From a virus: DNA of 55,727 nt. A program made the translations under genes and the position numbers. The stretch lies in the UHGV virus genome UHGV-0036148, one strand, 5' to 3'. The notes under the pieces were generated by a model. It saw nothing but the letters and a program-made list of their open reading frames with translations. It made no database searches and was not told the origin of the DNA. Shown piece after piece: positions 3,962 through 54,317 of this stretch. How positions within the stretch are numbered: position 1 is the first letter of the stretch; each line of letters opens with the position of its first letter.

Positions 3962-4120
3962 AATGCTCTCTCCTTTTAAGGTGATTTCTACGCATTTCAG
4001 CGCTGCCGGATTTTTAAAGAGCATTTTGCTTGCTTGAAGTATACAAAATGGATACGTGTAAACAAGACGAATAGCGCCATTATGTGATCCACATCACGCA
4101 ATGGCGCCATTTTGTAAATT

Positions 4121-7686: not shown

Positions 7687-7708
7687 TTATGTGATCGCAA
7701 TCACAATG
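7687..7708. promoter_or_regulatory. CRP-consensus palindrome TGTGA-N6-TCACA
   Basis: ttaTGTGAtcgcaaTCACAatg, perfect half-sites with 6-bp spacer, in a 100-bp intergenic gap. Confidence 0.45.
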
Positions 7709-11819: not shown

Positions 11820-12160
11820 AATCTGATCTCCGTATATCCTTGATGAAACTTAATAAAAAATCATCTTCGTTAATTGCCGCACTTCCAGCGGCTGACCAGA
11901 TTTTTAATGAGCGGCTTAACATCTTTCAACTAATCCCGCAATCATCGCCGTTTCCGGTGTGACCTTGCTCACTCCAAGCAAGCTGACTCGTCGCCTTGCG
12001 TGCGGTTTCGTGGGGGATGTAACGCTTTAAACACCCCATGCGCCTTGTTATCAGTGCCGCTTTCGGTCCCCCATCGGGGAGTTACTCCACGGTTGACAAG
12101 GTGTTAAGCCTGATTTTTAAAGTGCCAGGAAGCTGCTTTTGTTACCTACGCCCTTCCTTT

Positions 12161-12196: not shown

Positions 12197-12289
12197 TCCA
12201 TTTTGTATACTTTTTTAAAATATTTTATATGCTATTGATATCTAAACAATAAATAGCGTTTTCTGTTTACGTTTTGGTGTTTTTTTGGG

Positions 12290-12968: not shown

Positions 12969-13273
12969 GTCGCTACCCTATAACCTAAAAAATTTTGATG
13001 CAAGTCACAAAACGTGTTTTTCAAGTCTTGACCCGTTAGCGCCATTCTGTAAACTTGCTGACAAGGTAAAGCCATACTTGCAATGATGCAAGGAAAAAGA
13101 TAAGGGAAAGCACAAAAAGGCCGACGCCTTAAGCTCTTTAAAAATCCGGTGTCGCTGCGAAGCGAAAAACAAATATCACGCAACGGCGGGATCTGTTGAG
13201 CGGTCAGTCACTGCTATCTAATGCTAATGGGATGCCCGCCCGCGCGTTCATTTTAACCATAGGAGAAAATACA

Positions 13274-15718: not shown

Positions 15719-16837
15719 ATGTCACAAAGAAAAATCAGCGATGAGCAATTGATCGCTGAATATAACAACGGTTTAACGTACAAGCAGATCGCTGAAAAAT
15801 ATGGCATGTCAAAACGCAACGTCGAGCGGCTAGGCGCAAAACTGGCGAAACGCGGTTTAATATCCACGCGTCGCGCACCGGGTTTTGGCGTCAATGCTGA
15901 GTCATTGCTCGTCGATAAGGATGGCAATGTGATCATGCGCTGGATTAAAACAGCCCGTGACCGCGACGAAATGGAACAGTTAATGGAAGCGGCCCGCGAC
16001 GCTTTCACGGATGAAATACCACGCGCGGAGGCTGTGCCAGTGCCTGAAATTGATTTTCAAAAAAGCCTGGCCCTTTATCCGGTGTTTGATCTGCATATCG
16101 GGGCGCTTGCTCATAAAGCTGAATGCGGCGAGAGCTACGACACTGGGATCGCTGAGCGCGTGTTGAATGACTTCTTTGACTACGCTGTTGGCGCTGCTCC
16201 GATGTCTGAAAAAGCCGTACTGCTCCTCGGTGGCGATCTGCTTCATTCTGACGGTATGGTCCCGGTGACGCCAATAAGCGGGCACATTCTTGATCAAGAT
16301 AGTCGCTACGCAAAACTTGTTTATGTGGCGATCCGGTCTGTCCGGCGGGCGGTAGGTAAAATGTTGTTAAATCATAAGGATGTTGAAATCCAGGTGTTAT
16401 CAGGCAATCACGATCAGTCAGGCATGATTTGGCTACGTGCGGCGCTGGCGGCTTTTTACGAAGATGAACCGCGCGTGACGGTTGATGTGTCCCCTACTAT
16501 CGTCCACCACACACAGTACGGCAAAACATTCCTTGCTTACCACCACGGGCACACTATCAAAAAGCCGGAAAATTTATTGTCTGCTTGCGTAGCTGACTGG
16601 CGTGAGGATTTCGGCAAGTCTGCGGCGGTTTACGCTCATTGCGGGCACTGGCATCATCAACGGCTGATTGAATCATCGTTAGGCGTTGTTGAGTATCACG
16701 GCACATTAGCGGGTAAAGACGCTTATTCAACGAATGGCGGTTGGCGGTCGCGGCGTCTGGCGGCGGTGATTATTTACAGCCCGGATCATGGGGAAATTGG
16801 GCGCTTTGTTTATTACCCTGAATATTCCATTTTGTAA
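15719..16837 (+). CDS. HTH domain fused to calcineurin-like metallophosphoesterase
   Basis: N-terminal HTH (LTYKQIAEKYGMSKRNVERL); phosphoesterase motifs DLHIG, GGDLLH, GNHD, HHGH, GHWHH. Confidence 0.6.
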   Translation: MSQRKISDEQLIAEYNNGLTYKQIAEKYGMSKRNVERLGAKLAKRGLISTRRAPGFGVNAESLLVDKDGNVIMRWIKTARDRDEMEQLMEAARDAFTDEIPRAEAVPVPEIDFQKSLALYPVFDLHIGALAHKAECGESYDTGIAERVLNDFFDYAVGAAPMSEKAVLLLGGDLLHSDGMVPVTPISGHILDQDSRYAKLVYVAIRSVRRAVGKMLLNHKDVEIQVLSGNHDQSGMIWLRAALAAFYEDEPRVTVDVSPTIVHHTQYGKTFLAYHHGHTIKKPENLLSACVADWREDFGKSAAVYAHCGHWHHQRLIESSLGVVEYHGTLAGKDAYSTNGGWRSRRLAAVIIYSPDHGEIGRFVYYPEYSIL

Positions 16838-16855
16838 ACCGGAGGCAATAACATA

Positions 16856-25577: not shown

Positions 25578-25620
25578 CTCGATGACTCCATTTTGTTAAT
25601 TAACGGAATAATTCTACCAT

Positions 25621-25642
25621 TTTGTGATCTGTGTTGCATTTT
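25621..25642. promoter_or_regulatory. degenerate CRP-like site upstream of lipoprotein gene
   Basis: tttTGTGAtctgtgTTGCAttt; left half-site perfect, right half degenerate. Confidence 0.25.
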
Positions 25643-25754
25643 CTGCTTACACAAAATGTATTTGTTGATTTATATCAATATACGAAATGTTGTTTTGTCG
25701 GATATTCAAGACACCGGATGAACCGGACGAGCTAACAAGAACGAGGATTAAAAA

Positions 25755-26003
25755 ATGAAAAACATGTTCAAAGTGGTTTTATTCTCTGCGGCTGTAGCTC
25801 TTACTGGTTGCGCTGTTGACAAAGAGGCCGCATTGCATAACCTGCCGAATAGCGGAGTAATTCCACAAGATGTTGTCTATGATGGTGAAGGTCATCTTGT
25901 CTATGACACTGAAAAACTGCCTTATACTGGTCAATGGTGTCATGAACTCGATCACAACATGCGCCGCATCGGTAGCCCTTCTAACTGTGTAGCTAACTAC
26001 TAA
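25755..26003 (+). CDS. small lipoprotein (moron)
   Basis: signal peptide with lipobox LTGC; AGGA SD; opposite strand between J and tail fibre; own terminator. Confidence 0.6.
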   Translation: MKNMFKVVLFSAAVALTGCAVDKEAALHNLPNSGVIPQDVVYDGEGHLVYDTEKLPYTGQWCHELDHNMRRIGSPSNCVANY

Positions 26004-26008
26004 AAGAA

Positions 26009-26032
26009 AACCCCGCGCGAAGCGGGGTTTTT
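26009..26032. terminator. bidirectional rho-independent terminator
   Basis: CCCCGC-gcgaa-GCGGGG hairpin flanked by A-run and T-run, between lipoprotein and J stops. Confidence 0.6.
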
Positions 26033-26034
26033 GT

Positions 26035-31964: not shown

Positions 31965-32644
31965 TTGTCAGATCTCCATATTGAATTGGTCTGTCGAACA
32001 TACGCGGGCCGCATTTGCTCGCGGCGGCTTAACAGTCCGGCATTGTCATGATGCAAAACAGTGTTATCGCCCAGGTAAATCATCGCGTGGCATGGGTCAG
32101 CGCCTTTAAACGGCTGGCGGATAATCACATCACCGGGCTGAATGTTTTGCGCGTCAACCATGAAAAACCCGTTCAATGGCAGGTTTTTTATGTACAGGTT
32201 TTCCCCACGCAGCCACCACCCATCGCGGCGCTCAAAGTCAGGCAGATCCACGCCGCAAAGGTGATAGGCGTCACGAAAAAGCGAGTAGCAGTCTGTTTTC
32301 CCGTGCTCAAATTTACGGCCTAACAGGTGCGCTACCGGGCGGAATTTTCTTACCCTGCCACCGGAACATAAAAACCACGGTAGGCCGGAAATAACCTGCT
32401 GTTGTCGATCCCGTGCTGACAATACCAATGAATCGTTAGTATGTGAGTGGAAAACGGCTGTTATAACGCCTAATTCGTCAGCTTTGATATAATCGTCAGG
32501 CGAGATTTTAAAGCTGTTGTGCGGCGTTTCAGACACGTTTAAACACGGGTAAAAATAATCGTTATCTATCACCAGCCCACACACTTCTTCGTCAGGGTGG
32601 GCCGCTGCATAGCGAATCATTTTATCTTCAAGTGCCATAATCAA
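31907..32644 (-). CDS. K: tail assembly protein K (JAMM/MPN + NlpC/P60-like)
   Basis: CGLVI, AVFHSHTN (JAMM HxH), AMIYLGDNTVLHH parallel lambda K. Confidence 0.85.
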   Translation of the reverse strand: MIMALEDKMIRYAAAHPDEEVCGLVIDNDYFYPCLNVSETPHNSFKISPDDYIKADELGVITAVFHSHTNDSLVLSARDRQQQVISGLPWFLCSGGRVRKFRPVAHLLGRKFEHGKTDCYSLFRDAYHLCGVDLPDFERRDGWWLRGENLYIKNLPLNGFFMVDAQNIQPGDVIIRQPFKGADPCHAMIYLGDNTVLHHDNAGLLSRREQMRPAYVRQTNSIWRSDKCSNLDLRAIFEDITARCV

Positions 32645-33345
32645 CCCACCTTGCTGGATCCAGGGAAACAGGAAATTGGTAACGGATTAGGGCGCGGAAA
32701 ACGCAAACGGCAACCGCTTAGGCGGTGGCTGCATTTATCCAGCTTCGGATCACTGGTTAGCTCGTCTTTGTCAGTAGCTACGGGGCCGCCACTGTATCTG
32801 CAACCGTCGCCGCGATATTGCCACTGGCAAACGTCAGCGAGAATTGTGCGCCCGGGGATAACCGCCTTGTCAGCATCAATTGGCGTTGACAGTTCATATT
32901 GCACCTGGTCGGCTGTTTCTTCGCTCATCGCCTCAACGACGTAAAAAGATACAGCCTCAATAGATGGATCTGCATCTGGATTGCCGTTGGGGAAGTTAAC
33001 AGCGTCCAGGTATTTTACTTCCACCTGGCGGCGCGTAACCTTCATTCCTCGCAGGTCGTTAAAATCGTTGTTCATCCCGGTGATTAGCCCGCCAATGTTG
33101 GCTACTACCATTTGCGGGCGCGAGTAAACGCCTTCGTTTTTCATTTCGAAGCCAGTAGCCTCGATTGGGTAGCTGTTGTAAGTCACTCCCTTCCAGATAA
33201 CCGGGCCGTAATAGCCATTCGCGCCGGAATGGAAGCGGATAACCTCGCCACCCAGGGGCGTGAGGTCTAATTCAAACAAATCAATTACCGCGCCGACTCC
33301 GGCATCGACGGAATCAATAATCATTTCTGTAGGTATGCTGCGCAT
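32641..33345 (-). CDS. L: minor tail protein L
   Basis: YLDAVNFPNGNPDADP, LSTPIDADKAVIPGR, QWQYRGDGCRYSG, KCSHRLSGC parallel lambda L. Confidence 0.85.
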   Translation of the reverse strand: MRSIPTEMIIDSVDAGVGAVIDLFELDLTPLGGEVIRFHSGANGYYGPVIWKGVTYNSYPIEATGFEMKNEGVYSRPQMVVANIGGLITGMNNDFNDLRGMKVTRRQVEVKYLDAVNFPNGNPDADPSIEAVSFYVVEAMSEETADQVQYELSTPIDADKAVIPGRTILADVCQWQYRGDGCRYSGGPVATDKDELTSDPKLDKCSHRLSGCRLRFPRPNPLPISCFPGSSKVG

Positions 33346-33361
33346 TTTTTCACCTTGTCAT

Positions 33362-33383
33362 TTTGTGATCGCCGTCACGCTAA
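33362..33383. promoter_or_regulatory. degenerate CRP-like site in divergent region between L and plus-strand moron cassette
   Basis: tttTGTGAtcgccgTCACGc. Confidence 0.25.
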
Positions 33384-33473
33384 ATCATACCAAAACGGTT
33401 GATAGCGATTTTTACAATATGTATATTGTACTCAAAAGGAAGCATGGTTAACAAAATGGCGCGGAGGTGTGAG

Positions 33474-33629
33474 ATGACTGATAAGGTGTGGAGGTTGACG
33501 GTATTCCTGTCAGGCGGCAGGGAAATGACTGTGGCTCTGTATAAAGACGAAGGCGAGGCACTGACTGACGCGCTTTTACTTACTGAAGATGACCGCGTTT
33601 TGGGATACAGGATCGAACCTGCCAAATGA
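33474..33629 (+). CDS. hypothetical small protein (51 aa), moron cassette gene 1
   Basis: GGAGGTG SD; plus strand inside minus-strand tail module. Confidence 0.35.
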   Translation: MTDKVWRLTVFLSGGREMTVALYKDEGEALTDALLLTEDDRVLGYRIEPAK

Positions 33630-33642
33630 AAGGTTAACAAAA

Positions 33643-33993
33643 ATGCAAAAATACAGATTAGACGTGTGGACTGATAAATGTGAGTGGGAAAGCATAGGAC
33701 TATTTGACACATTCGAATCAGCGCGTAATGAAGGTTGTGAATTGCTCCGCTGTTGGTCTGGTGCTCGTGATTATTATGTTATTCCGGTGCAAGTGCCGGA
33801 TAAGGTGGAAGAGATGAACCCGAAAGATATTAACTTTAACGTCAATGTTGAATTTGCCGACTCTATGGATCAGGCTTGCCCTGGTGAAATACACGCAAAA
33901 GGTTTCCCGGCAGACAATCCGCAAGCAAAACGCGAATACGAAAAAGCGGCAAAAGATTTCTGTATCGACAATTTGTCTGCGTTCGATAAATAA
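33643..33993 (+). CDS. hypothetical protein (116 aa), moron cassette gene 2
   Basis: ORF following gene 1 on plus strand. Confidence 0.4.
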   Translation: MQKYRLDVWTDKCEWESIGLFDTFESARNEGCELLRCWSGARDYYVIPVQVPDKVEEMNPKDINFNVNVEFADSMDQACPGEIHAKGFPADNPQAKREYEKAAKDFCIDNLSAFDK

Positions 33994-34002
33994 GGCGGCA
34001 AC

Positions 34003-34251
34003 ATGGGGCGGCGCAATCACGGCGATTATGTGTACACGTTGAAACAGGCCGCCCGCCTCGTTGGTTATCATGAACACGAATTTATTGATTTGCTGATTGA
34101 GCGCGGGATACTGTACCAGGTCTGTTTAACGCTGTACCCGAAAGCGAAATACCTACAGGAAAAGTTATTCATCATCATGACGGATGAAAACCAGGTTAAC
34201 CATTCATTCGTCACTGATAAGGGCGTTAATTATCTGCGTGATAACTTATAG
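34003..34251 (+). CDS. hypothetical protein (82 aa), moron cassette gene 3
   Basis: AAGGCGG SD; plus strand. Confidence 0.4.
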   Translation: MGRRNHGDYVYTLKQAARLVGYHEHEFIDLLIERGILYQVCLTLYPKAKYLQEKLFIIMTDENQVNHSFVTDKGVNYLRDNL

Positions 34252-34261
34252 GTGACAGATT

Positions 34262-34378
34262 ATGAAAATAGAAGTTTTGGCGCTAATAATAATGGGATTG
34301 ATAGTATTTGGCGTTCATGCTGTAGATCTGGACTGGAAAACGATAGCGGAAAATATAGCATTAATGGAAATGGAATAA
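34262..34378 (+). CDS. mini membrane/secreted peptide (38 aa)
   Basis: MKIEVLALIIMGLIVFGVHA... hydrophobic N-terminus; GGTGA SD. Confidence 0.3.
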   Translation: MKIEVLALIIMGLIVFGVHAVDLDWKTIAENIALMEME

Positions 34379-34382
34379 TAAT

Positions 34383-34410
34383 AACCCCGCTTCTCGCGGG
34401 GTCGTGTTTA
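34383..34410. terminator. hairpin terminator closing the plus-strand moron cassette
   Basis: CCCCGC-ttctc-GCGGGG hairpin; T-rich on minus side, TCGTGTTTAT on plus side. Confidence 0.45.
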
Positions 34411-34605
34411 TACGCCATCAACCAAAAATAAAACTTCCTTCCCTTCCCGGGATCTACACCCCACGTACCCATCGCCAACGTCGTGAAGATACCATATATC
34501 GCCGTTGTCAGCTTTTACAGTAAGGTCGTTGATCTCATAGTCGTCAAACAATGTAAAAGCGTCAGTTTTGTCAACTACACAAGTCCCGTACATATCAACC
34601 CCCAT
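34408..34605 (-). CDS. hypothetical protein (65 aa)
   Basis: ORF immediately downstream of M. Confidence 0.35.
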   Translation of the reverse strand: MGVDMYGTCVVDKTDAFTLFDDYEINDLTVKADNGDIWYLHDVGDGYVGCRSREGKEVLFLVDGV

Positions 34606-34958
34606 TAGCCGACAACTTGCTCAAATGTTGCGTTTAGCGTGTATACAGGCCCATCTTTGGTCATGCTCCAGCTACGACAAACAAAAAGCCTCTGCACGTT
34701 ATCCATAGATGGCGACCAGTAAAAAGCCTCGATAGCGCCTCGCGCCCTCAAGAATGCTTCTGCCTGGATCGCCACGTTCCCTCCATCACCACATCCCGCG
34801 CTACTGCCTTTAAAAACCAGGGTGTAACTATCAAGTAATGTGTTAATCCCTTTCGCCTGGCGTTGTTCATACCCATCACCAAGTTTAATGACAGATACGT
34901 TTGGCTCCCTGGTCACGCTGTAGCTTCTTTGCGGCGTCCATCTGAAAACTTCTGGCAT
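34605..34958 (-). CDS. M: minor tail protein M
   Basis: FRW...LGDGYEQRQAKGIN...EQVVG parallels lambda M; GGGGGAAT SD. Confidence 0.8.
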   Translation of the reverse strand: MPEVFRWTPQRSYSVTREPNVSVIKLGDGYEQRQAKGINTLLDSYTLVFKGSSAGCGDGGNVAIQAEAFLRARGAIEAFYWSPSMDNVQRLFVCRSWSMTKDGPVYTLNATFEQVVG

Positions 34959-34984
34959 GATTCCCCCTATAAGTTACATATTGC

Positions 34985-35020
34985 ATACATCTTTACGCGC
35001 TTCTACGCGAAAAATGAGAA
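34985..35020 (-). promoter_or_regulatory. conserved intergenic element (copy 1) upstream of M
   Basis: atacatCTTTACGCGCTTCTACGCGAAAAATGAGAAA; near-identical copy at 47609..47645. Confidence 0.4.
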
Positions 35021-35127
35021 ATTCATCACAAGAATTATAACCAGTTTACAAAATGGCTTCACACAGTGCGTGACAATATGTATATAGTAAGCAAGAAGAA
35101 AAAGCAGTACCGACAAAGGAGGCCAAC

Positions 35128-35283
35128 ATGAAGCGTTATGTAGTGGTAATGCTGAACAACGCATTCGAACAGGTGGAAGTGGCGATAGTCAAAGGCTTTG
35201 ATGACGCATTCAAATACGGTCAATTCATGATGAATGCGAAGGAAAACGAGTACCGTGATTTCTTCCTGAAAGTGGTCAACTAA
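35128..35283 (+). CDS. hypothetical small protein (51 aa)
   Basis: AGGAGG SD; plus strand between M and tape measure. Confidence 0.35.
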   Translation: MKRYVVVMLNNAFEQVEVAIVKGFDDAFKYGQFMMNAKENEYRDFFLKVVN

Positions 35284-35301
35284 TGGATTGCGGGGTGGGT
35301 T

Positions 35302-35556
35302 ATGAAATTGGTAGCGATTGGTAAAAATCTGAAAGCACAGAAAAACGCACAGGACCGGATCATCAAAAAGGGCAAGGCTTTATTAAATGCTTTCCTGAGA
35401 AAAGAGGCCACCCCCAAAAAATTACGCGATGGTTACGGTTATAAATTTGATATTAACCCCGATTGGCGGTTATTCAGCGAAGATTTAAAGGCGTGGTTAA
35501 TTATCGACCATCTGGAATATAACAGACACTGTGGGGTTAAAGGGGCGCATAAGTAA
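35302..35556 (+). CDS. hypothetical protein (84 aa)
   Basis: GGGGTGGG SD; plus strand. Confidence 0.4.
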   Translation: MKLVAIGKNLKAQKNAQDRIIKKGKALLNAFLRKEATPKKLRDGYGYKFDINPDWRLFSEDLKAWLIIDHLEYNRHCGVKGAHK

Positions 35557-35691
35557 GGCGGGCATGAAGGGCGATAAATTCACCCGGCGGGGGAACTGGA
35601 ATGTTTGACAGGTAATTTTGGATAGGGTGTATCGCGCGGAATGGTTGTTTATAAATACGAAAATAGCCCCGGCATTGTGCCGGGGTTTGGT

Positions 35692-38600
35692 TTATTTGCG
35701 GCGAGGTTGCAACATTCCTCCAGGGCGTTGCGACTCCCTTGCCATCATTTTCATTGCTACGCGTTCCATTGTCTGCTCAAGCCTGCGGCTATCCTCGTCA
35801 CTAAATCCGTTTGTGGTCTGGACGGTGATGTTTACAGGCATATTGATACCGCCACCGCTGAAAAGATCGCGGCCAGGAATAACCCTGCCATTTTCACCAG
35901 GAATCATATACTGACGCCCGTTGCTCGTCTGGAATAGCTCCGGTATCCCGTGTTCCCCTACGCGATACAGGCTACCACCATTAACCGCACCGCCGTTATA
36001 GCGAGCGCCAGCCAGTCCAAGCGTTTTGGCGGCAGCTACGCCAGTAGTAAGCCCAGTAAGTCCAGTGGCCCCAGCGCCGCCCATCGTGGCAACGTTTGCC
36101 AGGTATGCAGGAGTAGCCCACGCTGATGATAACGCTGCCGCCTCTGCCAGTGCTTTGGTTGTTGCCATAGTTCTTGCTGTATCACCAATCAATTGCTGCT
36201 TGACCCACTCAGTACCCATTTGAACAATCGTACCAATCACAGAGGAAAGGATTGTATTGCCAATGTTAGCCAGCGCCTGTTGCCAGCTTTGAGTACCGTT
36301 AATCAGGCCGACAAGCGCGTTAGTTGCAGATCCGCCCATTGCATCAACAGCATCACCTAACAGTTGGTTGGTCAATGACTGCGCCTTATACCTCTCCCAC
36401 TGAAGTGATAGCATTTCCCTCTCGTGCGCTTTTTCTTGCTCCCTCATATATTGCTCTGTAGCGCCTAAATCTGTGAGCATTTGTTTGCGAACCGCCCATT
36501 CGTTCATCGCCTGCTGAATTGGGTCTAGCTGCCCGCGTAGTTGCAGCTCATTGTTTACCAGATTATCCCAACTAGATTGGCGTTTGCGTTGCTCTTCCGC
36601 CGCAACCAGCGCTTTCCATGCCGTAGTATATTGTTCGGTATTTATTTTTCCGCTTTTAAGTGCGGCGTTTAGCGCATCCTGATCCTCTTTTAATTTCCGT
36701 TGTGCTGCGGCTTCTACGTTGTATTTGTCTGCAACATTCTGGCCCCGCTTCTCAATCTCTTTGCGCAGGCGTTCAGCCTCTTTTAGACGTTTTTTCTCCT
36801 CGCTTTCGCCAGTTTTTTTCCCATGACTGGCCTTTCTTTCAGCTTCGGCGCGTTTCTGCTCGGTGTCGTATGCTTTGGTCATTGTAGCCATGTATTTTTC
36901 ATACGCTTCCCCGGTCAGGTTTGCTTTCTCAGCCTCACGCTTAAACCCATCAATCGCCTTTTCCCTGCTGGCTGTTTTGGAGTCGAGTTTTGCCAGTTCC
37001 AGGCGGCGGTTTGCCAGATCCATTAGTTCTTGTTGATCTGCGTTAAGTGCTGCTGAAGCGTGTTGCGTTGCTGCTGCTGCGCGTTCTGCTTCTGTGGTGA
37101 TTCTTCCGTATGCATCCGCCACCAACCCTAATGAAGTGGCAAGGGTCTTCATTAGCGGATCTGTATCCTGCATAAGCAAAATATATTTGCGCTGCATTTG
37201 ATTAAGGCGGTCGAGAATATCCTCACGCTGCGCCTCTTCCCTGGTCAGGCGGGCTGTGATTTCCTGATTAGCTTTCGATAGGTTGGCGTAAGCGCGTGAC
37301 CCCTCCTCTGCTTTCTCCAGTGCCTGTTTATTCAGCTCCAGCGCCTGCGTGTCCTGGTCAATCTGTTTGTTGAGACTGGCAACGTCTTCCTCTAACTGAC
37401 CCATTGATATTTGTAGTTTATCTGCGCCAGCCAGTTTAGCCGCCTTGCTCATTCGCTCCAGTGATTCGGTACTAACATCCACTGAATCAGCAAGGTTGCG
37501 GTTTGCCTCTGCCGTTTGATCTACGTGATCTACATATGCTGTCAACCCGTAAACAGCAAGCATTAACGCGCCAGGGATACCACCAATCGCGCCCAGAGTA
37601 GCGCTAAATGCTGTTTTTAGTAGTCCCGCATTAGTCGCCGCCGCAGTGTGGGCCGCAGCAAGGCGCTGCTCTGCCGCAGTAAGGGCGTTTGATGCCGCCG
37701 TGTTCTGTGCTTTGGCTACAGCCAATTCTTTCAGCGTCTGAACTTCGAATTTTGTTCCGGCGTTTGCCGCAGCATAAGCCTGCGCCTCTCTCAGCCTTGC
37801 CGCCGCCGCCGCTGCTGATTGCCGTGCTGATACCACCTGAGCGTTAGCTAGCGCCAATTCACTCTGAGCGGCCTGCCGTGCCGCTGCCGTTTGTGCCCTG
37901 GTTGCCTGAGCGTTAGTTAATGCCTCTGCTGTTGCAGCTACGAATTTATTTACCACTCTGCCACCCATCACAGTGGCAAGGCCAATAAATGCAGTAGCTA
38001 TTTCGTTAAGGTTTTCTGACAGGGTTACAACTGCCGAATTAAAAGCACCAATCCCGCCCATAATTGACGAATTGCTGCCGAAAAATTTAGCTGCGTTGTT
38101 GCCTGCAACAGTGAAAGCCTCCTGCATAGTTGGGGTGAGTTTAGAAAACTCAGCATCAACCTCCGCTTTCATTTCCTTAAGGGCTTTAATGATAGCTTCA
38201 CGGGTGATCTTCCCTTCTGCTGCCATCTTGCGCATTTCTGCCGACGATACGCCCAATGATTTAGCCAAACCCTCTGACAGCCTGGTAGCGTTTTCTGTAA
38301 CGGAGTTAAATTCATCGCCATTCAAAACACCTTTGGCGAGGGATTGACCCAACTGACGGATCCCGCCTTCTGCTTCAGCGGCAGAAGCGCCAGAAATGCG
38401 GAATGTTTTGTTAATGGTTTCAACCATATCACCAAGTGCTTGCGTCGATAAACCAGCGTCGCGCGTCGAGCGCTCTAATTTACCGTAAAGATCTGCCGTA
38501 GCATCAAGATCGCTTCGTGAATTTTGCGCGATCTGAAATACACGCTGATTAACGTCTGCCAGTGATTCACCAGCACGAACGCTATTGATTAGCCTGTTAT

Positions 38601-38841
38601 TCACCTCCTGCCAGGCGTTTGCATACTCAATGATTTTTTTTGCTGCCATTGCAGCACCCAGGGCACTGGCAATCGAGGATAGCTTTGACAGTGACTTACT
38701 TGCCTGAGTGGCGGCACTATCCACGCGCTCCAAATCCTTTTCCATTTTGCCAGTTGCGCGATCTACCTCGCGCTGAACAGTCAGAAGCTGACCCGTTTTT
38801 GCATCAACCTCGTAATAAATTGTGCCTAAATTTGTTGACAT
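35692..38841 (-). CDS. H: tail tape measure protein
   Basis: 1049 aa, Ala/Gln-rich coiled-coil, position between chaperone and M; GAGGT SD. Confidence 0.85.
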   Translation of the reverse strand: MSTNLGTIYYEVDAKTGQLLTVQREVDRATGKMEKDLERVDSAATQASKSLSKLSSIASALGAAMAAKKIIEYANAWQEVNNRLINSVRAGESLADVNQRVFQIAQNSRSDLDATADLYGKLERSTRDAGLSTQALGDMVETINKTFRISGASAAEAEGGIRQLGQSLAKGVLNGDEFNSVTENATRLSEGLAKSLGVSSAEMRKMAAEGKITREAIIKALKEMKAEVDAEFSKLTPTMQEAFTVAGNNAAKFFGSNSSIMGGIGAFNSAVVTLSENLNEIATAFIGLATVMGGRVVNKFVAATAEALTNAQATRAQTAAARQAAQSELALANAQVVSARQSAAAAAARLREAQAYAAANAGTKFEVQTLKELAVAKAQNTAASNALTAAEQRLAAAHTAAATNAGLLKTAFSATLGAIGGIPGALMLAVYGLTAYVDHVDQTAEANRNLADSVDVSTESLERMSKAAKLAGADKLQISMGQLEEDVASLNKQIDQDTQALELNKQALEKAEEGSRAYANLSKANQEITARLTREEAQREDILDRLNQMQRKYILLMQDTDPLMKTLATSLGLVADAYGRITTEAERAAAATQHASAALNADQQELMDLANRRLELAKLDSKTASREKAIDGFKREAEKANLTGEAYEKYMATMTKAYDTEQKRAEAERKASHGKKTGESEEKKRLKEAERLRKEIEKRGQNVADKYNVEAAAQRKLKEDQDALNAALKSGKINTEQYTTAWKALVAAEEQRKRQSSWDNLVNNELQLRGQLDPIQQAMNEWAVRKQMLTDLGATEQYMREQEKAHEREMLSLQWERYKAQSLTNQLLGDAVDAMGGSATNALVGLINGTQSWQQALANIGNTILSSVIGTIVQMGTEWVKQQLIGDTARTMATTKALAEAAALSSAWATPAYLANVATMGGAGATGLTGLTTGVAAAKTLGLAGARYNGGAVNGGSLYRVGEHGIPELFQTSNGRQYMIPGENGRVIPGRDLFSGGGINMPVNITVQTTNGFSDEDSRRLEQTMERVAMKMMARESQRPGGMLQPRRK

Positions 38842-39100
38842 GATTTAACCTCATACAAAATGTGATCTATGCCTCTATTTTATACAAAATGGATTTACCT
38901 CAGTGAACACATTTTGTATAAAGAAGCCAAAGGAAAGGGATAGAGCGAAGGGACTTAAAAGGCCGGATTGACCGGAGGAAGCAAAAGAGGATAAGAAAAT
39001 GAAAAACGTAAACTACCACCCCAACGAACATGAGCGCTATGCTGACTTTATCGAGCAAATGTTAAAAGCGCTGAAAAACAAAAACTAAGCGGGGTGAAAT

Positions 39101-39460
39101 ATGAAAAGTCTGGCAAAAATCTTAATCGTGGCGGTACTTGCAGGAGTTGCGCTTAATGCTAATGCTGAGCACTCTCCGTCCGCAAAATACATACTTCGTG
39201 AATGTGCGCATAATGCTCAGTTGTACGATATAAAGCATGGTGACGGTAATGGTGATCTGGAAATGCCATTTAACGTTGGCTGTATTCATTACGCAATGAA
39301 GCCAGTATTAGAAAAAACCGCTGAATGGAAAGATCTTAATAGCAAGTACAATGAATTAAAAGAGGCGGCAAAAAACAATAAAGCGTCACTAAATGCGTTT
39401 AAGGATGGCGAGTCTTATGGTGTAAACGTGGCCCACAGAGTTGATGCGTATTTCAACTAA
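39101..39460 (+). CDS. secreted protein with signal peptide (moron)
   Basis: MKSLAKILIVAVLAGVALNANA signal peptide; opposite strand within tail module. Confidence 0.5.
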   Translation: MKSLAKILIVAVLAGVALNANAEHSPSAKYILRECAHNAQLYDIKHGDGNGDLEMPFNVGCIHYAMKPVLEKTAEWKDLNSKYNELKEAAKNNKASLNAFKDGESYGVNVAHRVDAYFN

Positions 39461-39472
39461 CACAGAATTTTA

Positions 39473-39499
39473 GAGGCCCGGCTAATCCCGGGCTTTTTC
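39473..39499 (+). terminator. rho-independent terminator after secreted-protein gene
   Basis: GCCCGG-ctaatc-CCGGGC followed by TTTTTC. Confidence 0.5.
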
Positions 39500-40162
39500 T
39501 TGCTCGCTATTTTCCATTCTTTTTAGTATCTCCATAGCCTCCCTCATTCCATCGTCATAAGCCTTTTTATCCAGTAATACATCTGGTCGTTTTTGTTTGT
39601 TTCTTGCTTCTGGCGGCGTTTTAGCACGCACAGCGGCCCTATATCCGGTCATTGTCATATTCCACGCTTCTGATTCTGATAACCCCAGGTGAGCAACGGC
39701 AGAATAAACAAACTCCAGTATGTCGAACGTTGGTTTGTATTCACCTTCCTGTCTATCGCTTGCGACCTCTTCAGGGCCATCACCAATTAAGCCGTGGTAC
39801 ATGCAGTGTTGCGCCAGCGTAATAACATCATCAACCGGCATTATTCCCGGTTTTAATCTCAATTTACCCGAAGGAGTGAACCTGCATTCGCCCAATAACG
39901 GGCCTGTTTCGTCGTCTGAGCAACATTTCAGTATGTGGATGGATGTTTGTACTATCTCACCATAACACCGCGCCATAATGCGATTGCGGAGGTCTGGATC
40001 TGTGGGTAATCGTGATGGGTATTTGCTGCCGTGGATAAGTGCGAAATATTCGACAAGCTCACTATCGTTGCCGATTTTAGCCATCGCAGCAAAGCAAGGA
40101 TTAAATTCATAGCGCTTACCGTTCACCACAGCCGCAAATTGTCCTGTACGAACATGGATCAT
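39482..40162 (-). CDS. putative tail assembly chaperone (by position)
   Basis: occupies the G/GT position between major tail gene and tape measure; ATG 40162 with AGGGTGA SD. Confidence 0.3.
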   Translation of the reverse strand: MIHVRTGQFAAVVNGKRYEFNPCFAAMAKIGNDSELVEYFALIHGSKYPSRLPTDPDLRNRIMARCYGEIVQTSIHILKCCSDDETGPLLGECRFTPSGKLRLKPGIMPVDDVITLAQHCMYHGLIGDGPEEVASDRQEGEYKPTFDILEFVYSAVAHLGLSESEAWNMTMTGYRAAVRAKTPPEARNKQKRPDVLLDKKAYDDGMREAMEILKRMENSEQEKARD

Positions 40163-40181
40163 AGTATTCACCCTAAAAGGA

Positions 40182-45346: not shown

Positions 45347-46287
45347 TCTTCGCCATATTTAGCGTGCGCAACCTTATAGTTTTCTTGCGCCCGTTCTAAT
45401 ATTCGTTTGTTTAATATATTACCGTCTTCGTCAACTAATACGGTAATAGTGCTGCATTTGCAGTTAATTGAATTAGGGGATCTACTCCACCATTCGCGCT
45501 GCTCTTCTATGGTGTACGTTTTCCCGTGCCGCTGTGCGTGTGACAGCCTGGTAGTCGGCGACAATGCCGAAATGTGCATCTGCATAGTGCGCAAGTTAAG
45601 CTCATCCGATGCGGCCTCTGCCTCATCCATACGCGCTGTGCGCAACGCTGTGCATATTTCAGTGCGGGCAATACGTTTGCACCTGTATAGTGGTAATTGC
45701 GTTTCCTGCTGCAATGTGCGCGCTATTTCGAGTGGGTTTAAGCCACGAGCCATGCCTTCAGTTAATCGGCGGGCCATATCCTTCTTGATCTGTGCTGTAA
45801 GCCCGCGCATCTCTTCAAATACACGGGTACGAACAAGGGCAAGGCGCGTGCGATAGGTCTGACTGGTTAATACCGCCGACACTTCAGGGTAAGCCCTGGA
45901 ATATGTGACCGACTGGTTAGCGAGGTTGGCATATTCCTGTGCAGTACCGCGCTGATATGCCACTTTCACGTACTCCTGCCAAAACCAGAAGTTTTCCGGG
46001 TCGGTAAGGTCGAATATCTCATCAATCATGTCGCTGGCGTCTTCAAGCAAATCATGCAATTCGTCGATGTAGATCTGAAAAGTGTATTTCTTGTTAACAG
46101 CCAGGGTGTATTGCATCCGGTCCAGTATGGCGATATACGGTTCCGCAACTTTCTTAAGGCAGGCTTTAAAACGCTTGATAGCACCGGACCTCAACTTCCC
46201 TGTCATGGTCGGGTCTTCGGTGTTAGATGGCATTATCGCGGCTGGAGGTATTCGCCTGATTATCTTCTTCACCTTCATCATCGTCAC
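45337..46287 (-). CDS. MuF-like minor head morphogenesis protein
   Basis: central and C-terminal regions resemble the Mu F / SPP1 gp7 family (recalled). Confidence 0.55.
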   Translation of the reverse strand: MTMMKVKKIIRRIPPAAIMPSNTEDPTMTGKLRSGAIKRFKACLKKVAEPYIAILDRMQYTLAVNKKYTFQIYIDELHDLLEDASDMIDEIFDLTDPENFWFWQEYVKVAYQRGTAQEYANLANQSVTYSRAYPEVSAVLTSQTYRTRLALVRTRVFEEMRGLTAQIKKDMARRLTEGMARGLNPLEIARTLQQETQLPLYRCKRIARTEICTALRTARMDEAEAASDELNLRTMQMHISALSPTTRLSHAQRHGKTYTIEEQREWWSRSPNSINCKCSTITVLVDEDGNILNKRILERAQENYKVAHAKYGEDWE

Positions 46288-47593
46288 CCTCTTCCGTTTC
46301 TACTACACTAGCGGGGCCATCGTATCCGGCAGCCTCGCGGATTTCGTCACCGCTAAATATCTCTTCACCAGTAGCCAGACAAGCCTGATTGATTTGTGCC
46401 ATTTTGTGTGCCGCTTCCAGTAGTTCGGCTTTGGTCATGGCGTTCAGGTCGTCCCATATTACTGATACATCAATTGGCATACTGATAAGGCGGAGATCTG
46501 CCATCTTGCGGAACAGATCTTCAAGTTCACCGCCAATTTCCTCCCTGCGGGTCATACAGCGGCTGTTGAAATAGCGGAGATCTTCGGTTGATGCGCGTTC
46601 TCCCTGCTGGTTCCCTACCAGGATGCGGGTCGGAATATCAATACCAGCGGCGGCGGTTTGCAGGTTGACGTCATAGGTTGCTGACGGGTCAGATACGGCA
46701 GTCACCAGCGGGCTGACTGTTGCCCCCTGTAATGCCATCATCACATCGTTACCCTTATTCATTTCAGCCGCAGCCTCATTGAATCTTTCGCGTAGCTCTG
46801 TAACGTCGCAATCGTATGTTGCAGCCAGGGAACGGAAGTCAATTTCCTTATCGAATGAGATAGCAAGCTGGCGGGCGGCGTTTTTCAGGAATGATTCACC
46901 GCTACCACCTTCCACCTTCTCCAGTGACACAAAGGCGTTATAGGAAGGTTCAAGGAAAGCGATAGCATCATCAGAATAGTCGCCAAAGATGAATATGCGG
47001 TCAGGGTGGATCTTTCTGGCAATGGTTTTACTGTTTATGCGCTCTTTGTATTCCCACCATGTCGGCAGGCCATAATTTTCACTGTTCGGGTCTTCTTCGA
47101 CCTCCTTCGGTGTAAGAGCGCCAGCCCATACCGGGGTAAATTTGGCAATACCTACGCCTTTTGTCACTGGCTGATCCCACGGCTGGTTATCTCTGACATG
47201 AATCAACAGGCCAGCATAACGACCAATGAGGCGGCGGCGGTCACATTCGGCAATGATGCGCCAAAATCTGTTATCAAACTGTTTCTTGATTTCTCTTTCC
47301 CAGGATGTTTCTGTTTCCGCTTTCTCGTCTTCTGTTCCTTCAATCATCGTTGGCCTGGTGCGCCAGCAAGTTGTGATGATTTTCTCAATAGCACCGTGAG
47401 CAATACCACCGCGACGATACAGTTTGTATAGATCGTCATACGTGATCTCTTCTTTGAATCCGTATTCACTCCACGCAGCATCGCGTTTGGCATCTATCCC
47501 CATAGTGAATGGGTTGGCGGCTGCATAGCGGGCATAGGCCGCCTGACGTTGTGACAAGGCAGCATTAACCGCCAATTCTAAATTGGATGGCAT
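46223..47593 (-). CDS. portal protein
   Basis: large ORF directly downstream of TerL with acidic C-terminus; ATG 47593 with AGGAG SD. Confidence 0.65.
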   Translation of the reverse strand: MPSNLELAVNAALSQRQAAYARYAAANPFTMGIDAKRDAAWSEYGFKEEITYDDLYKLYRRGGIAHGAIEKIITTCWRTRPTMIEGTEDEKAETETSWEREIKKQFDNRFWRIIAECDRRRLIGRYAGLLIHVRDNQPWDQPVTKGVGIAKFTPVWAGALTPKEVEEDPNSENYGLPTWWEYKERINSKTIARKIHPDRIFIFGDYSDDAIAFLEPSYNAFVSLEKVEGGSGESFLKNAARQLAISFDKEIDFRSLAATYDCDVTELRERFNEAAAEMNKGNDVMMALQGATVSPLVTAVSDPSATYDVNLQTAAAGIDIPTRILVGNQQGERASTEDLRYFNSRCMTRREEIGGELEDLFRKMADLRLISMPIDVSVIWDDLNAMTKAELLEAAHKMAQINQACLATGEEIFSGDEIREAAGYDGPASVVETEEGDDDEGEEDNQANTSSRDNAI

Positions 47594-47608
47594 AATGTTT
47601 ACTCCTGA

Positions 47609-47645
47609 ATACATGTTTACGCGTTGCTACGCGAAAAATAGAAAA
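47609..47645 (-). promoter_or_regulatory. conserved intergenic element (copy 2) upstream of portal
   Basis: atacatGTTTACGCGTTGCTACGCGAAAAATAGAAAA. Confidence 0.4.
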
Positions 47646-54223: not shown

Positions 54224-54262
54224 GATTTTGTCCCATCTGTCTTTCTGTGGTTTATATATAAC

Positions 54263-54292
54263 AAAATGGCATCGCCGGAGAAATGCCATTTT
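54263..54292. promoter_or_regulatory. perfect 10-bp inverted repeat hairpin in intergenic gap
   Basis: AAAATGGCAT-cgccggagaa-ATGCCATTTT. Confidence 0.4.
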
Positions 54293-54295
54293 GTA

Positions 54296-54317
54296 TACAT
54301 TGTGATACAGATCACAT
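54296..54317. promoter_or_regulatory. CRP-consensus palindrome TGTGA-N6-TCACA
   Basis: cattgTGTGAtacagaTCACAtttt; perfect half-sites, 6-bp spacer, A/T flanks as in CRP consensus. Confidence 0.45.

Follow-up and report, generated by a model that had tools for sequence, protein, structure and literature searches.

The analyzed sequence is the virus genome UHGV-0036148 (55,727 nt, in its whole length referred to below as the window), a complete phage genome or prophage that belongs to the mEpimmI group (mEp021, mEp554 and their relatives), that is, a temperate siphophage of the mEp021 type and a prophage of E. coli. Between its minus-strand tail gene M (34605-34958; Pfam Phage_min_tail, 2.5e-28) and the minus-strand tape-measure gene (35692-38841; so annotated in relatives with 84-98% identity), which are adjacent genes in related phages, there is a small plus-strand gene cassette, further called cassette 2. 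In lambda, for instance, H and M are adjacent. Seven mEpimmI phages match the region 32900-35800 with 89-93% identity. Cassette 2 is nearly universal in this group; of 5426 complete E. coli genomes, 32 carry it. Its genes are already present in published mEp021-type genomes as hypothetical proteins gp67 and gp68. The mEpimmI group was described in 2025 (PMC11893012); promoters, operators, cassette 2 and the plus-strand cassette 1, located at lower coordinates, are not discussed there, and no promoter or operator map has been published for these recently described phages.

The presence of two plus-strand open reading frames (ORFs) of 51 and 84 amino acids (aa) with Shine-Dalgarno sequences between M and the tape-measure gene, suggested by an earlier sequence-only reading of this DNA, is confirmed by the coordinates and by the annotation of the flanking genes. 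The first gene, c2a (35128-35283, 51 aa), has GGAGG (35118-35122) 5 nt before its ATG. Its product belongs to the family phrog_29810 (1.8e-36), which has no assigned function, and is 80-98% conserved in relatives; it has no match in Pfam, NCBIfam, PADLOC or PDB, and no relatives are detectable outside the mEpimmI group. In some databases c2a is called with 68-76 aa, its start codon ATG then lying within the promoter motif described below or upstream of it, but this extension is out of frame in the window and is not conserved, and thus the 51-aa form was taken as real. The second gene, c2b (35302-35556, 84 aa), has GGGGTGGG before its ATG, and its product matches Pfam family PF24732 ParE_like (43.3 bits at a cut-off of 24.4, E-value 3.7e-11), being named 'ParE family toxin-like protein' in RefSeq.

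The 5' leader of the cassette (35087-35127) contains the sequence AAAGCAGTACCGACAAAGGAGG, homologous to the leader AAAGTAGTACCAAAACAAAGAGG that precedes a distant c2b homologue in contig L093. Downstream of c2b there is a 14-codon remnant ORF (MKGDKFTRRGNWNV*, 35564-35608, plus strand), which resembles the start of a 31-aa ORF (MNDDKFTWREIWNIW...) following c2b in L054 and of a 37-aa ORF in L092. The cassette ends with a bidirectional intrinsic terminator (35665-35687), common to cassette 2 on the plus strand and to the 3' end of the tape-measure gene on the minus strand; the RNA hairpin has a folding energy of -18.8 kcal/mol on the plus strand, where a T-run follows it, and of -16.3 kcal/mol on the minus strand, with z-scores of about -2.8. 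The G+C content of cassette 2 is 0.428, compared with 0.477 in M and 0.509 in the tape-measure gene, and overall the cassettes of this phage have a G+C content of 0.40-0.43 versus 0.48-0.52 in the flanking tail genes.

A predicted sigma-70 promoter precedes the leader. Upstream of it lies a CRP-like dyad, TGAGAAATTCATCACA (35015-35030), with one mismatch to TGTGA-N6-TCACA and its center at about -70.5 from the predicted start; among 52 relatives, hardly any change is seen in its right half, TCACA, its left half reads TGAGA, TAAGA or TGATA, and the inner six nucleotides vary. It is followed by the upstream arm TTTACAAAATGG (35045-35056), a member of the TWTACAAAATGG family, which ends 1 nt short of the -35 hexamer and is kept in 34 of the 52 relatives (single-base variants in the others). 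The predicted -35 hexamer is TTCACA (35058-35063), and 51 of 52 relatives retain its TTCAC. A 17-nt spacer separates it from the predicted -10 hexamer TATATA (35081-35086), the same geometry as in the other promoters of the family described below. The 17-mer ACAATATGTATATAGTA (35073-35089) spans the last spacer bases, the whole -10 hexamer and the discriminator. In relatives it mostly reads ACAAGATGTATA[T/C]AG[A/G/T]A, with TGTATA invariant (52/52), and 9 nt of the spacer between the -35 hexamer and TGTATA drift freely. A conserved -35 TTCAC and TGTATA core with a drifting spacer is the pattern expected of a promoter.

A near-matching 17-mer, ACAATATGTATATTGTA (33414-33430, 16 of 17 positions identical), is found upstream of cassette 1, as the sequence-only reading had noticed. 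A search of the window allowing up to 2-3 mismatches yields only these two sites, and the expected number of such pairs in dinucleotide-preserving shuffles is 0.01-0.08. At both cassettes the 17-mer holds a -10 hexamer 17 nt after a -35-like hexamer, so its description as promoter-like is supported. The cassette-1 promoter (33387-33430, plus strand) consists of the arm ATACCAAAACGG, the -35 hexamer TTGATA (33399-33404), a 17-nt spacer and the -10 hexamer TATATT (33422-33427), and has a promoter scan score of 10/12. Comparison of the two sites within each of 51 genomes gives one difference in the window only, two in 3 genomes, three in 7, four in 19, five in 15, and six or more in 6, with no co-variation seen between the cassette-1 and cassette-2 sites. 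Such a close match between the two 17-mers is thus peculiar to this genome. Scans of the viral collection with the 17-mer, and with a pattern combining the arm and the -35 hexamer, retrieved mEpimmI contigs and unrelated chance matches in A+T-rich sequences only, and so gave no information outside the group.

The resemblance is explained by a design of about 80 bp that is shared by promoters throughout the phage, both cassette promoters being copies of it. The design consists of the arm TWTACAAAATGG, 1 nt, the -35 hexamer, 17 nt ending with TG, TATAWW, and then a CAAAGGAAG-like start. It is used at least five times, being represented by the predicted promoters upstream of nutR1 (12209-12168, minus strand; TATACAAAATGG-A-TTGACT-17-TATATT), of cassette 2 (C2, plus strand; TTTACAAAATGG-C-TTCACA-17-TATATA) and of cassette 3 (C3, 38881-38922, plus strand; TATACAAAATGG-A-TTTACC-17-TATAAA), by a mirror promoter that faces the tape-measure gene (within 38879-38922, minus strand; TTCACT-17-TATAAA), and by the promoter of cassette 1 (C1, plus strand; ATACCAAAACGG-TTGATA-17-TATATT), whose arm is degenerate. 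The spacing between the arm, the -35 and the -10 hexamers is identical at four promoters, and C1 in the window lacks the 1-nt gap. The CAAAGGAAG-like sequence follows the -10 hexamer in the nutR1, C1, C2 and C3 copies. The back-to-back pair at 38879-38922 contains the arms TATACAAAATG-N18-CATTTTGTATA, and the core of the 17-mer, CAATATGTATA, differs from CATTTTGTATA by a single base.

Ungapped 80-nt alignments anchored at the -10 hexamer, with TATAWW-anchored windows as the background, show that the five family promoters are identical in 35-44 of 80 positions in pairwise comparisons (background 23.1 +/- 3.9, 99.9th percentile 36). C1 and C2 share 41 of 80 positions with each other, 41 and 42, respectively, with the nutR1 promoter (12173(-)), and 40 and 38 with the cassette-3 promoter. 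As C1 and C2 are no more similar to each other than either is to the promoters of nutR1 and cassette 3, the element is generic and not a private mark of the two cassettes. The words of the design are strongly over-represented: ACAAAATG is both the most over-represented and the most frequent 8-mer of the window (24 occurrences versus 3.6 expected), TWTACAAAATGG or its reverse complement CCATTTTGTAWA is found at 13-15 sites, nearly all intergenic (1.2-3.1 expected), and the pattern CA[AT][ATC][AT]TGTA[TA]A at 15 (1.2 expected). Examples of these elements are located at 4040-4052, 4106-4118, 12197-12209, 16826-16838, 25587-25599, 33448-33460, 35045-35057, 38881-38893, 54258-54270 and 54285-54297.

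The same design is found at early transcription units. Exact copies of the boxA-like sequence GCNCTTTAAAAATC lie at 13133-13146(+), 12112-12125(-) and 4009-4022(-), in agreement with the positions of nutL, nutR1 and nutR2 in PMC11893012, where nutR1 is placed upstream of gp17. All three are 15-80 nt downstream of family-type promoters (for the copy at 12112-12125, GCACTTTAAAAATC, the distance from the nutR1-upstream promoter is about 40 nt), and thus the family includes promoters feeding the N-like antitermination system. A fourth boxA-like copy with one mismatch, at 11899-11912(-), is not mentioned in PMC11893012.

In our reading, which we consider likely to be correct, the segment 34959-35691 is a self-contained moron-like unit with its own sigma-70 promoter of the phage-wide design, its own terminator and a gene, c2b, for a RelE/ParE-fold protein. 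Cassette 2 would have been inserted backwards into the genome of an mEpimmI phage, between M and the tape-measure gene; its transcription would start from the predicted TTCACA-17-TATATA promoter and proceed through the leader with its strong Shine-Dalgarno sequence, c2a and c2b to the bidirectional terminator, and the same promoter design would serve nutR1 with the N-like antiterminator, cassette 3 and the divergent promoter facing the tape-measure gene. Given the shared design, the cassettes are probably transcribed by the host RNA polymerase following the same rules as the wider promoter set. This reading is grounded in the sequence features with their statistics and conservation, and in the c2b fold; promoter activity, expression timing and the roles of the proteins are what we infer from them. 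The conclusion drawn earlier from the shared element, specific co-regulation of cassettes 1 and 2, holds in part: the element is indeed shared, but it is the generic promoter design of this phage, and the inference of a co-regulated pair is too narrow. Co-regulation of the two cassettes is plausible within a wider promoter set that includes an early promoter.

Several observations weigh against this reading. All promoters considered here are predictions. The -10 hexamer of cassette 2, TATATA (TATACA in many relatives), has no T at position 6, which is demanded by the consensus promoter scan, and for this reason the promoter is absent from the scan output; moreover, its -35 hexamer matches at only four of six positions. 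Hence, the cassette-2 promoter may be weak or require an activator. At 4108+, 12199+, 15696- and 54287+, TWTACAAAATGG arms occur with no fitting -35 and -10 hexamers, so the arm may be a protein-binding site and not just a part of the promoter. Finally, with its near-universal presence in relatives, cassette 2 is no sporadic 'extra' gene set in this group.

The assignment of c2b to the RelE/ParE fold relies on a structural model in addition to the Pfam match. A first model, built from close homologues with a shallow alignment, had a mean predicted local distance difference test score (pLDDT) of 55 and was not used; addition of two distant homologues (48-52% identity) gave a model with pLDDT 86.3 and a predicted template-modeling score of 0.75. 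This model shows the hallmark of the RelE/ParE fold, an N-terminal helix packed on an antiparallel beta-sheet. Its best structural matches are ParE-like proteins of phages fHe-Yen9-04 and RaK2 (template-modeling scores 0.69-0.84, E-value about 1e-5), and the Foldseek search agrees weakly, with YoeB as the top hit (probability 0.92, E-value 0.13). Sequence identity of c2b to solved RelE/ParE toxins is 5-23%, and searches with the c2b and c2a sequences against PDB retrieved nothing meaningful. Judging by the model, c2b is a RelE/ParE-fold protein. Residues K40, R56, H70, H83 and K84 are invariant and could form an RNase-type site. The FG-GAP-like matches P0103 and P0104 are spurious.

The fold and the gene order raise the possibility of a classical type II toxin-antitoxin pair, made up of c2a and c2b and serving as a prophage addiction or abortive-infection device. 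Besides the above-threshold match to ParE_like and the putative RNase-type residues, this possibility is favored by the position of the small c2a gene 18 nt upstream of c2b, usual for antitoxins, by the joint presence of both genes in 48 of about 50 relatives, and by truncated c2b copies next to intact c2a (L044, 2965-3153; P0033-P0041). However, c2a falls in no antitoxin family and resembles no solved structure, PADLOC yields no match, and the cassette-2 promoter site is symmetric in none of 52 genomes, leaving no autoregulatory palindrome. Moreover, two relatives, L054 (2833-3260) and L064, keep the promoter with an intact c2b (90-92% identical) directly behind it and without c2a. The nearest distant homologues of c2b are lone genes in arrays of small same-strand genes, each homologue with its own consensus promoter and no c2a-like neighbor, and the proteins closest in structure are encoded by lone genes of virulent jumbo phages. 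As two relatives keep c2b without c2a and the distant homologues are solitary in virulent phages, a classical toxin-antitoxin pair is doubtful, although it deserves consideration. We prefer to see c2b as an accessory RelE/ParE-fold protein, possibly acting with a partner, with a role possibly in host manipulation or defense; c2a may be a partner or neutralizer of c2b.

Another possibility, compatible with the preferred moron-like reading, is that a trans-acting factor governs the promoter set, either host CRP acting through the dyads or a regulator of the phage acting through the TWTACAAAATGG arms. In that case the cassettes would switch in concert with the promoters of nutR1 and nutR2 and with those that restart the tail genes. 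Dyads of the TGTGA-N6-TCACA type are enriched in the window (9 versus 1.6 expected, and 18 versus 4.3), and they lie upstream of the predicted starts of family promoters. The centers of the dyads, calculated from coordinates relative to predicted transcription starts, are at about -59.5 for the nutR2 promoter (dyad 4083) and 7650(-), -60.5 for 54260(-) and C3, -62.5 for C1 (dyad TGTGATCGCCGTCACG, 33364-33379, plus strand) and -70.5 for C2. Class I CRP-dependent promoters have the site centered at -61.5 or -71.5, so the pattern of putative sites at about -60 to -62.5 and -70.5 agrees with the class I geometry; alternatively, a phage protein of similar specificity could read the same dyad. At cassette 1, 15 dyad variants were found in 51 relatives, the changes being nearly confined to the central 4-5 bases with the half-sites nearly invariant. 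The arms, in turn, form inverted pairs with an 18-nt gap in three places (35045/35074, 38881/38910 and 54258/54287). On the other hand, binding at the dyads and arms is putative, the cassette-2 dyad is a weak match (TGAGA), and the arm partly overlaps the -10 region of the opposite strand, which alone could explain the inverted pairs. The apparent operators of the immunity region also look different. On balance, control of the set by such a factor seems rather unlikely. Dyads of the extended form TGTGATC-N4-GATCACA, two of them perfect, lie at 4083-4098, 7690-7705, 33364-33379 and 54301-54316, and weaker CRP-like dyads are at 35015-35030, 38861-38876 and 25620-25635.

A still more specific version, which we regard as speculative and improbable, would have TWTACAAAATGG/CCATTTTGTATA arms, often in inverted pairs 18 nt apart and with a TGTGATC-N4-GATCACA dyad about 60 nt upstream, bound by one regulator (of the phage, or CRP) that gates back-to-back promoters genome-wide. 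Wherever a counter-oriented cassette breaks up the long rightward operon, one promoter would fire the cassette and its mirror would restart the tail genes. If true, this would be an undescribed wiring of accessory cassettes into the early and late programs of a phage. 

Irrespective of this version, the phage-wide architecture of promoters and dyads is the more useful result and is worth following up: it yields a testable promoter consensus for the phage and brings candidate promoters before the three nut sites and predicted ones inside the tail operon, with a possible CRP input.

The 17-mer could also be the operator of a dedicated repressor, a c2a/c2b complex or the KilAC protein of cassette 1, binding a palindrome over the -10 hexamer and thereby coupling both cassettes. 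Autoregulation through palindromic sites is typical of type II antitoxins, and the cassette-1 site in the window is indeed an 18-bp palindrome over the -10 hexamer (33413-33430; TACAATAT-GT-ATATTGTA) with a half-site ACAATAT/ACAAGAT, which we take to be reminiscent of phage 434 operators. Nevertheless, this site reads ACAATATGTATATTTTA in 33 genomes and ends with ...TTGTA in 13; accordingly, the palindrome is perfect in 13 of 51 copies and broken (ATTGTA to ATTTTA) in 33 of 51, making a dedicated operator unlikely. The right arm of the cassette-2 site is never symmetric, its left arm being ACAAGAT in most relatives. In addition, the absence of co-variation between the sites, the retention of the promoter with c2b but without c2a in L054 and L064, and the lack of any greater similarity between C1 and C2 than between either of them and the promoters of nutR1 and cassette 3 all speak against it. 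ACAA-N8-TTGT and ACAA-N6-TTGT dyads are not enriched; the one ACAA-N6-TTGT and two ACAA-N8-TTGT dyads in the window are at the chance level, and phage 434-type operators were rejected. An operator function of the 17-mer thus has a low probability.

A CI-type repressor operator was likewise rejected for the 17-mer, as the immunity region carries other elements instead. Its intergenic space 12969-13100 contains TGATGCAAG twice, 88 nt apart, and the CTTG/CAAG palindromes CTTGCAATGATGCAAG and TCAAGTCTTGA (repeats and palindromes at 12996-13092), which are candidate Rep/Cro-like operators, seemingly distinct from the promoter-family motif. No operator word common to the immunity region and the nutR1 promoter was found.

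Coincidental likeness of two A+T-rich -10 regions, suggested by the fact that in most relatives the sites share only TGTATA and a few flanking bases, is hardly credible, since 0.01 such pairs are expected and the likeness spans 80 nt (41/80 versus 23 +/- 3.9) and recurs at further promoters.

Cassette 2 is another example of accessory genes among phage tail genes. The morons of lambdoid phages defined by Hendrix and colleagues, such as lom and bor of lambda and gene 15 of HK97, are likewise extra genes between conserved tail genes with their own promoter (here predicted) and terminator and a lower G+C content; unlike them, cassette 2 opposes the tail operon and is carried by nearly all members of the group. 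Moreover, its promoter copies an early-type phage promoter, so the cassette may not be expressed while the prophage is repressed. The immI region of P22 (ant, arc, mnt) is a counter-oriented regulatory cassette within the late region, similar in having small genes with own promoters amid late genes, and cassette 1 encodes a KilAC/ANT-type domain; however, no Arc- or Mnt-like repressor was found, and an antirepressor role is unsupported here. From the RelE/ParE toxin-antitoxin modules (YefM-YoeB, DinJ-YafQ, RelBE, ParDE, PaaA2-ParE2) the c2a/c2b pair differs in the low identity of c2b given above, in the antitoxin-unlike c2a, in the occurrence of c2b without c2a in two relatives, and in the homologues standing alone in virulent phages. 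The ParE_like proteins of Yersinia phage fHe-Yen9-04 and Klebsiella phage RaK2 share the Pfam family with c2b and are its best structural matches, but they are encoded by solitary genes of lytic jumbo phages, whereas c2b follows a 51-aa gene in the tail region of a temperate phage. Thus, a RelE/ParE-fold family of virulent jumbo phages is also present in a common group of gut coliphages.

The Logan contigs L092 and L093 (G+C content 0.41-0.42) hold arrays of small genes lying on one strand, and each gene has a sigma-70 promoter close to the consensus. The distant c2b homologue is found there together with homologues of the small ORFs located downstream of c2b in some mEpimmI phages, namely, the DKFTWRE... 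peptide and the ...RMAWIV...SVRGG... protein, which points to an accessory-gene pool common to temperate and probably virulent coliphages.

Cassette 1 (33474-34402, plus strand) encodes proteins of 51 and 116 aa, an 82-aa KilAC/ANT-domain protein and a 38-aa membrane peptide, and ends with a bidirectional terminator (34384-34402). It is flanked by tail gene L (32641-33345, minus strand) and by a 65-aa ORF (34408-34605, minus strand) among the tail genes. Paralogy of the 51-aa first genes of the two cassettes, c1a and c2a, was rejected (hhalign probability 0.1). The N-terminal part of c1b (116 aa, 33643-33993), about 50 residues, differs strongly from one relative to another, including L042-L090, with at least three allelic forms, and the C-terminal half (MNPKDIN...AAKDFCIDNL) is conserved, a sequence pattern that suggests diversifying selection.

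Two further plus-strand cassettes are present among the tail genes. Cassette 3 (38842-39500), between the tape-measure gene and the gene 39482-40171, contains an ORF of about 29 aa and a gene (39101-39460) whose 119-aa product is a secreted protein, and a terminator lies near 39468-39495. Its promoter is the plus-strand member of the predicted back-to-back pair. Cassette 4 (25578-26034), between J and the fiber gene, has three ACAAAATG copies upstream, a gene for an 82-aa lipoprotein (25755-26003) and a terminator at about 26005-26030. The lipoprotein is apparently the Lpp superinfection-exclusion protein of PMC11893012.

No RNA family was found by an Rfam scan of the window. A 31-nt repeat, ATACATCTTTACGCGCTTCTACGCGAAAAAT, is present in two 90% identical copies, 34985-35015 and 47609-47639. 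The former, upstream of M, holds a 7-codon mini-ORF (MYAICNL*), and the latter, on the minus strand, holds the start codon of a 463-aa gene (46223-47614). On the minus-strand side of the M ribosome-binding site (34975-34992), most relatives have a perfect family element, ACATTTTGTATATATC, which is degenerate in the window (ACATATTGCATACATC); it could be a promoter or a binding site immediately upstream of M.

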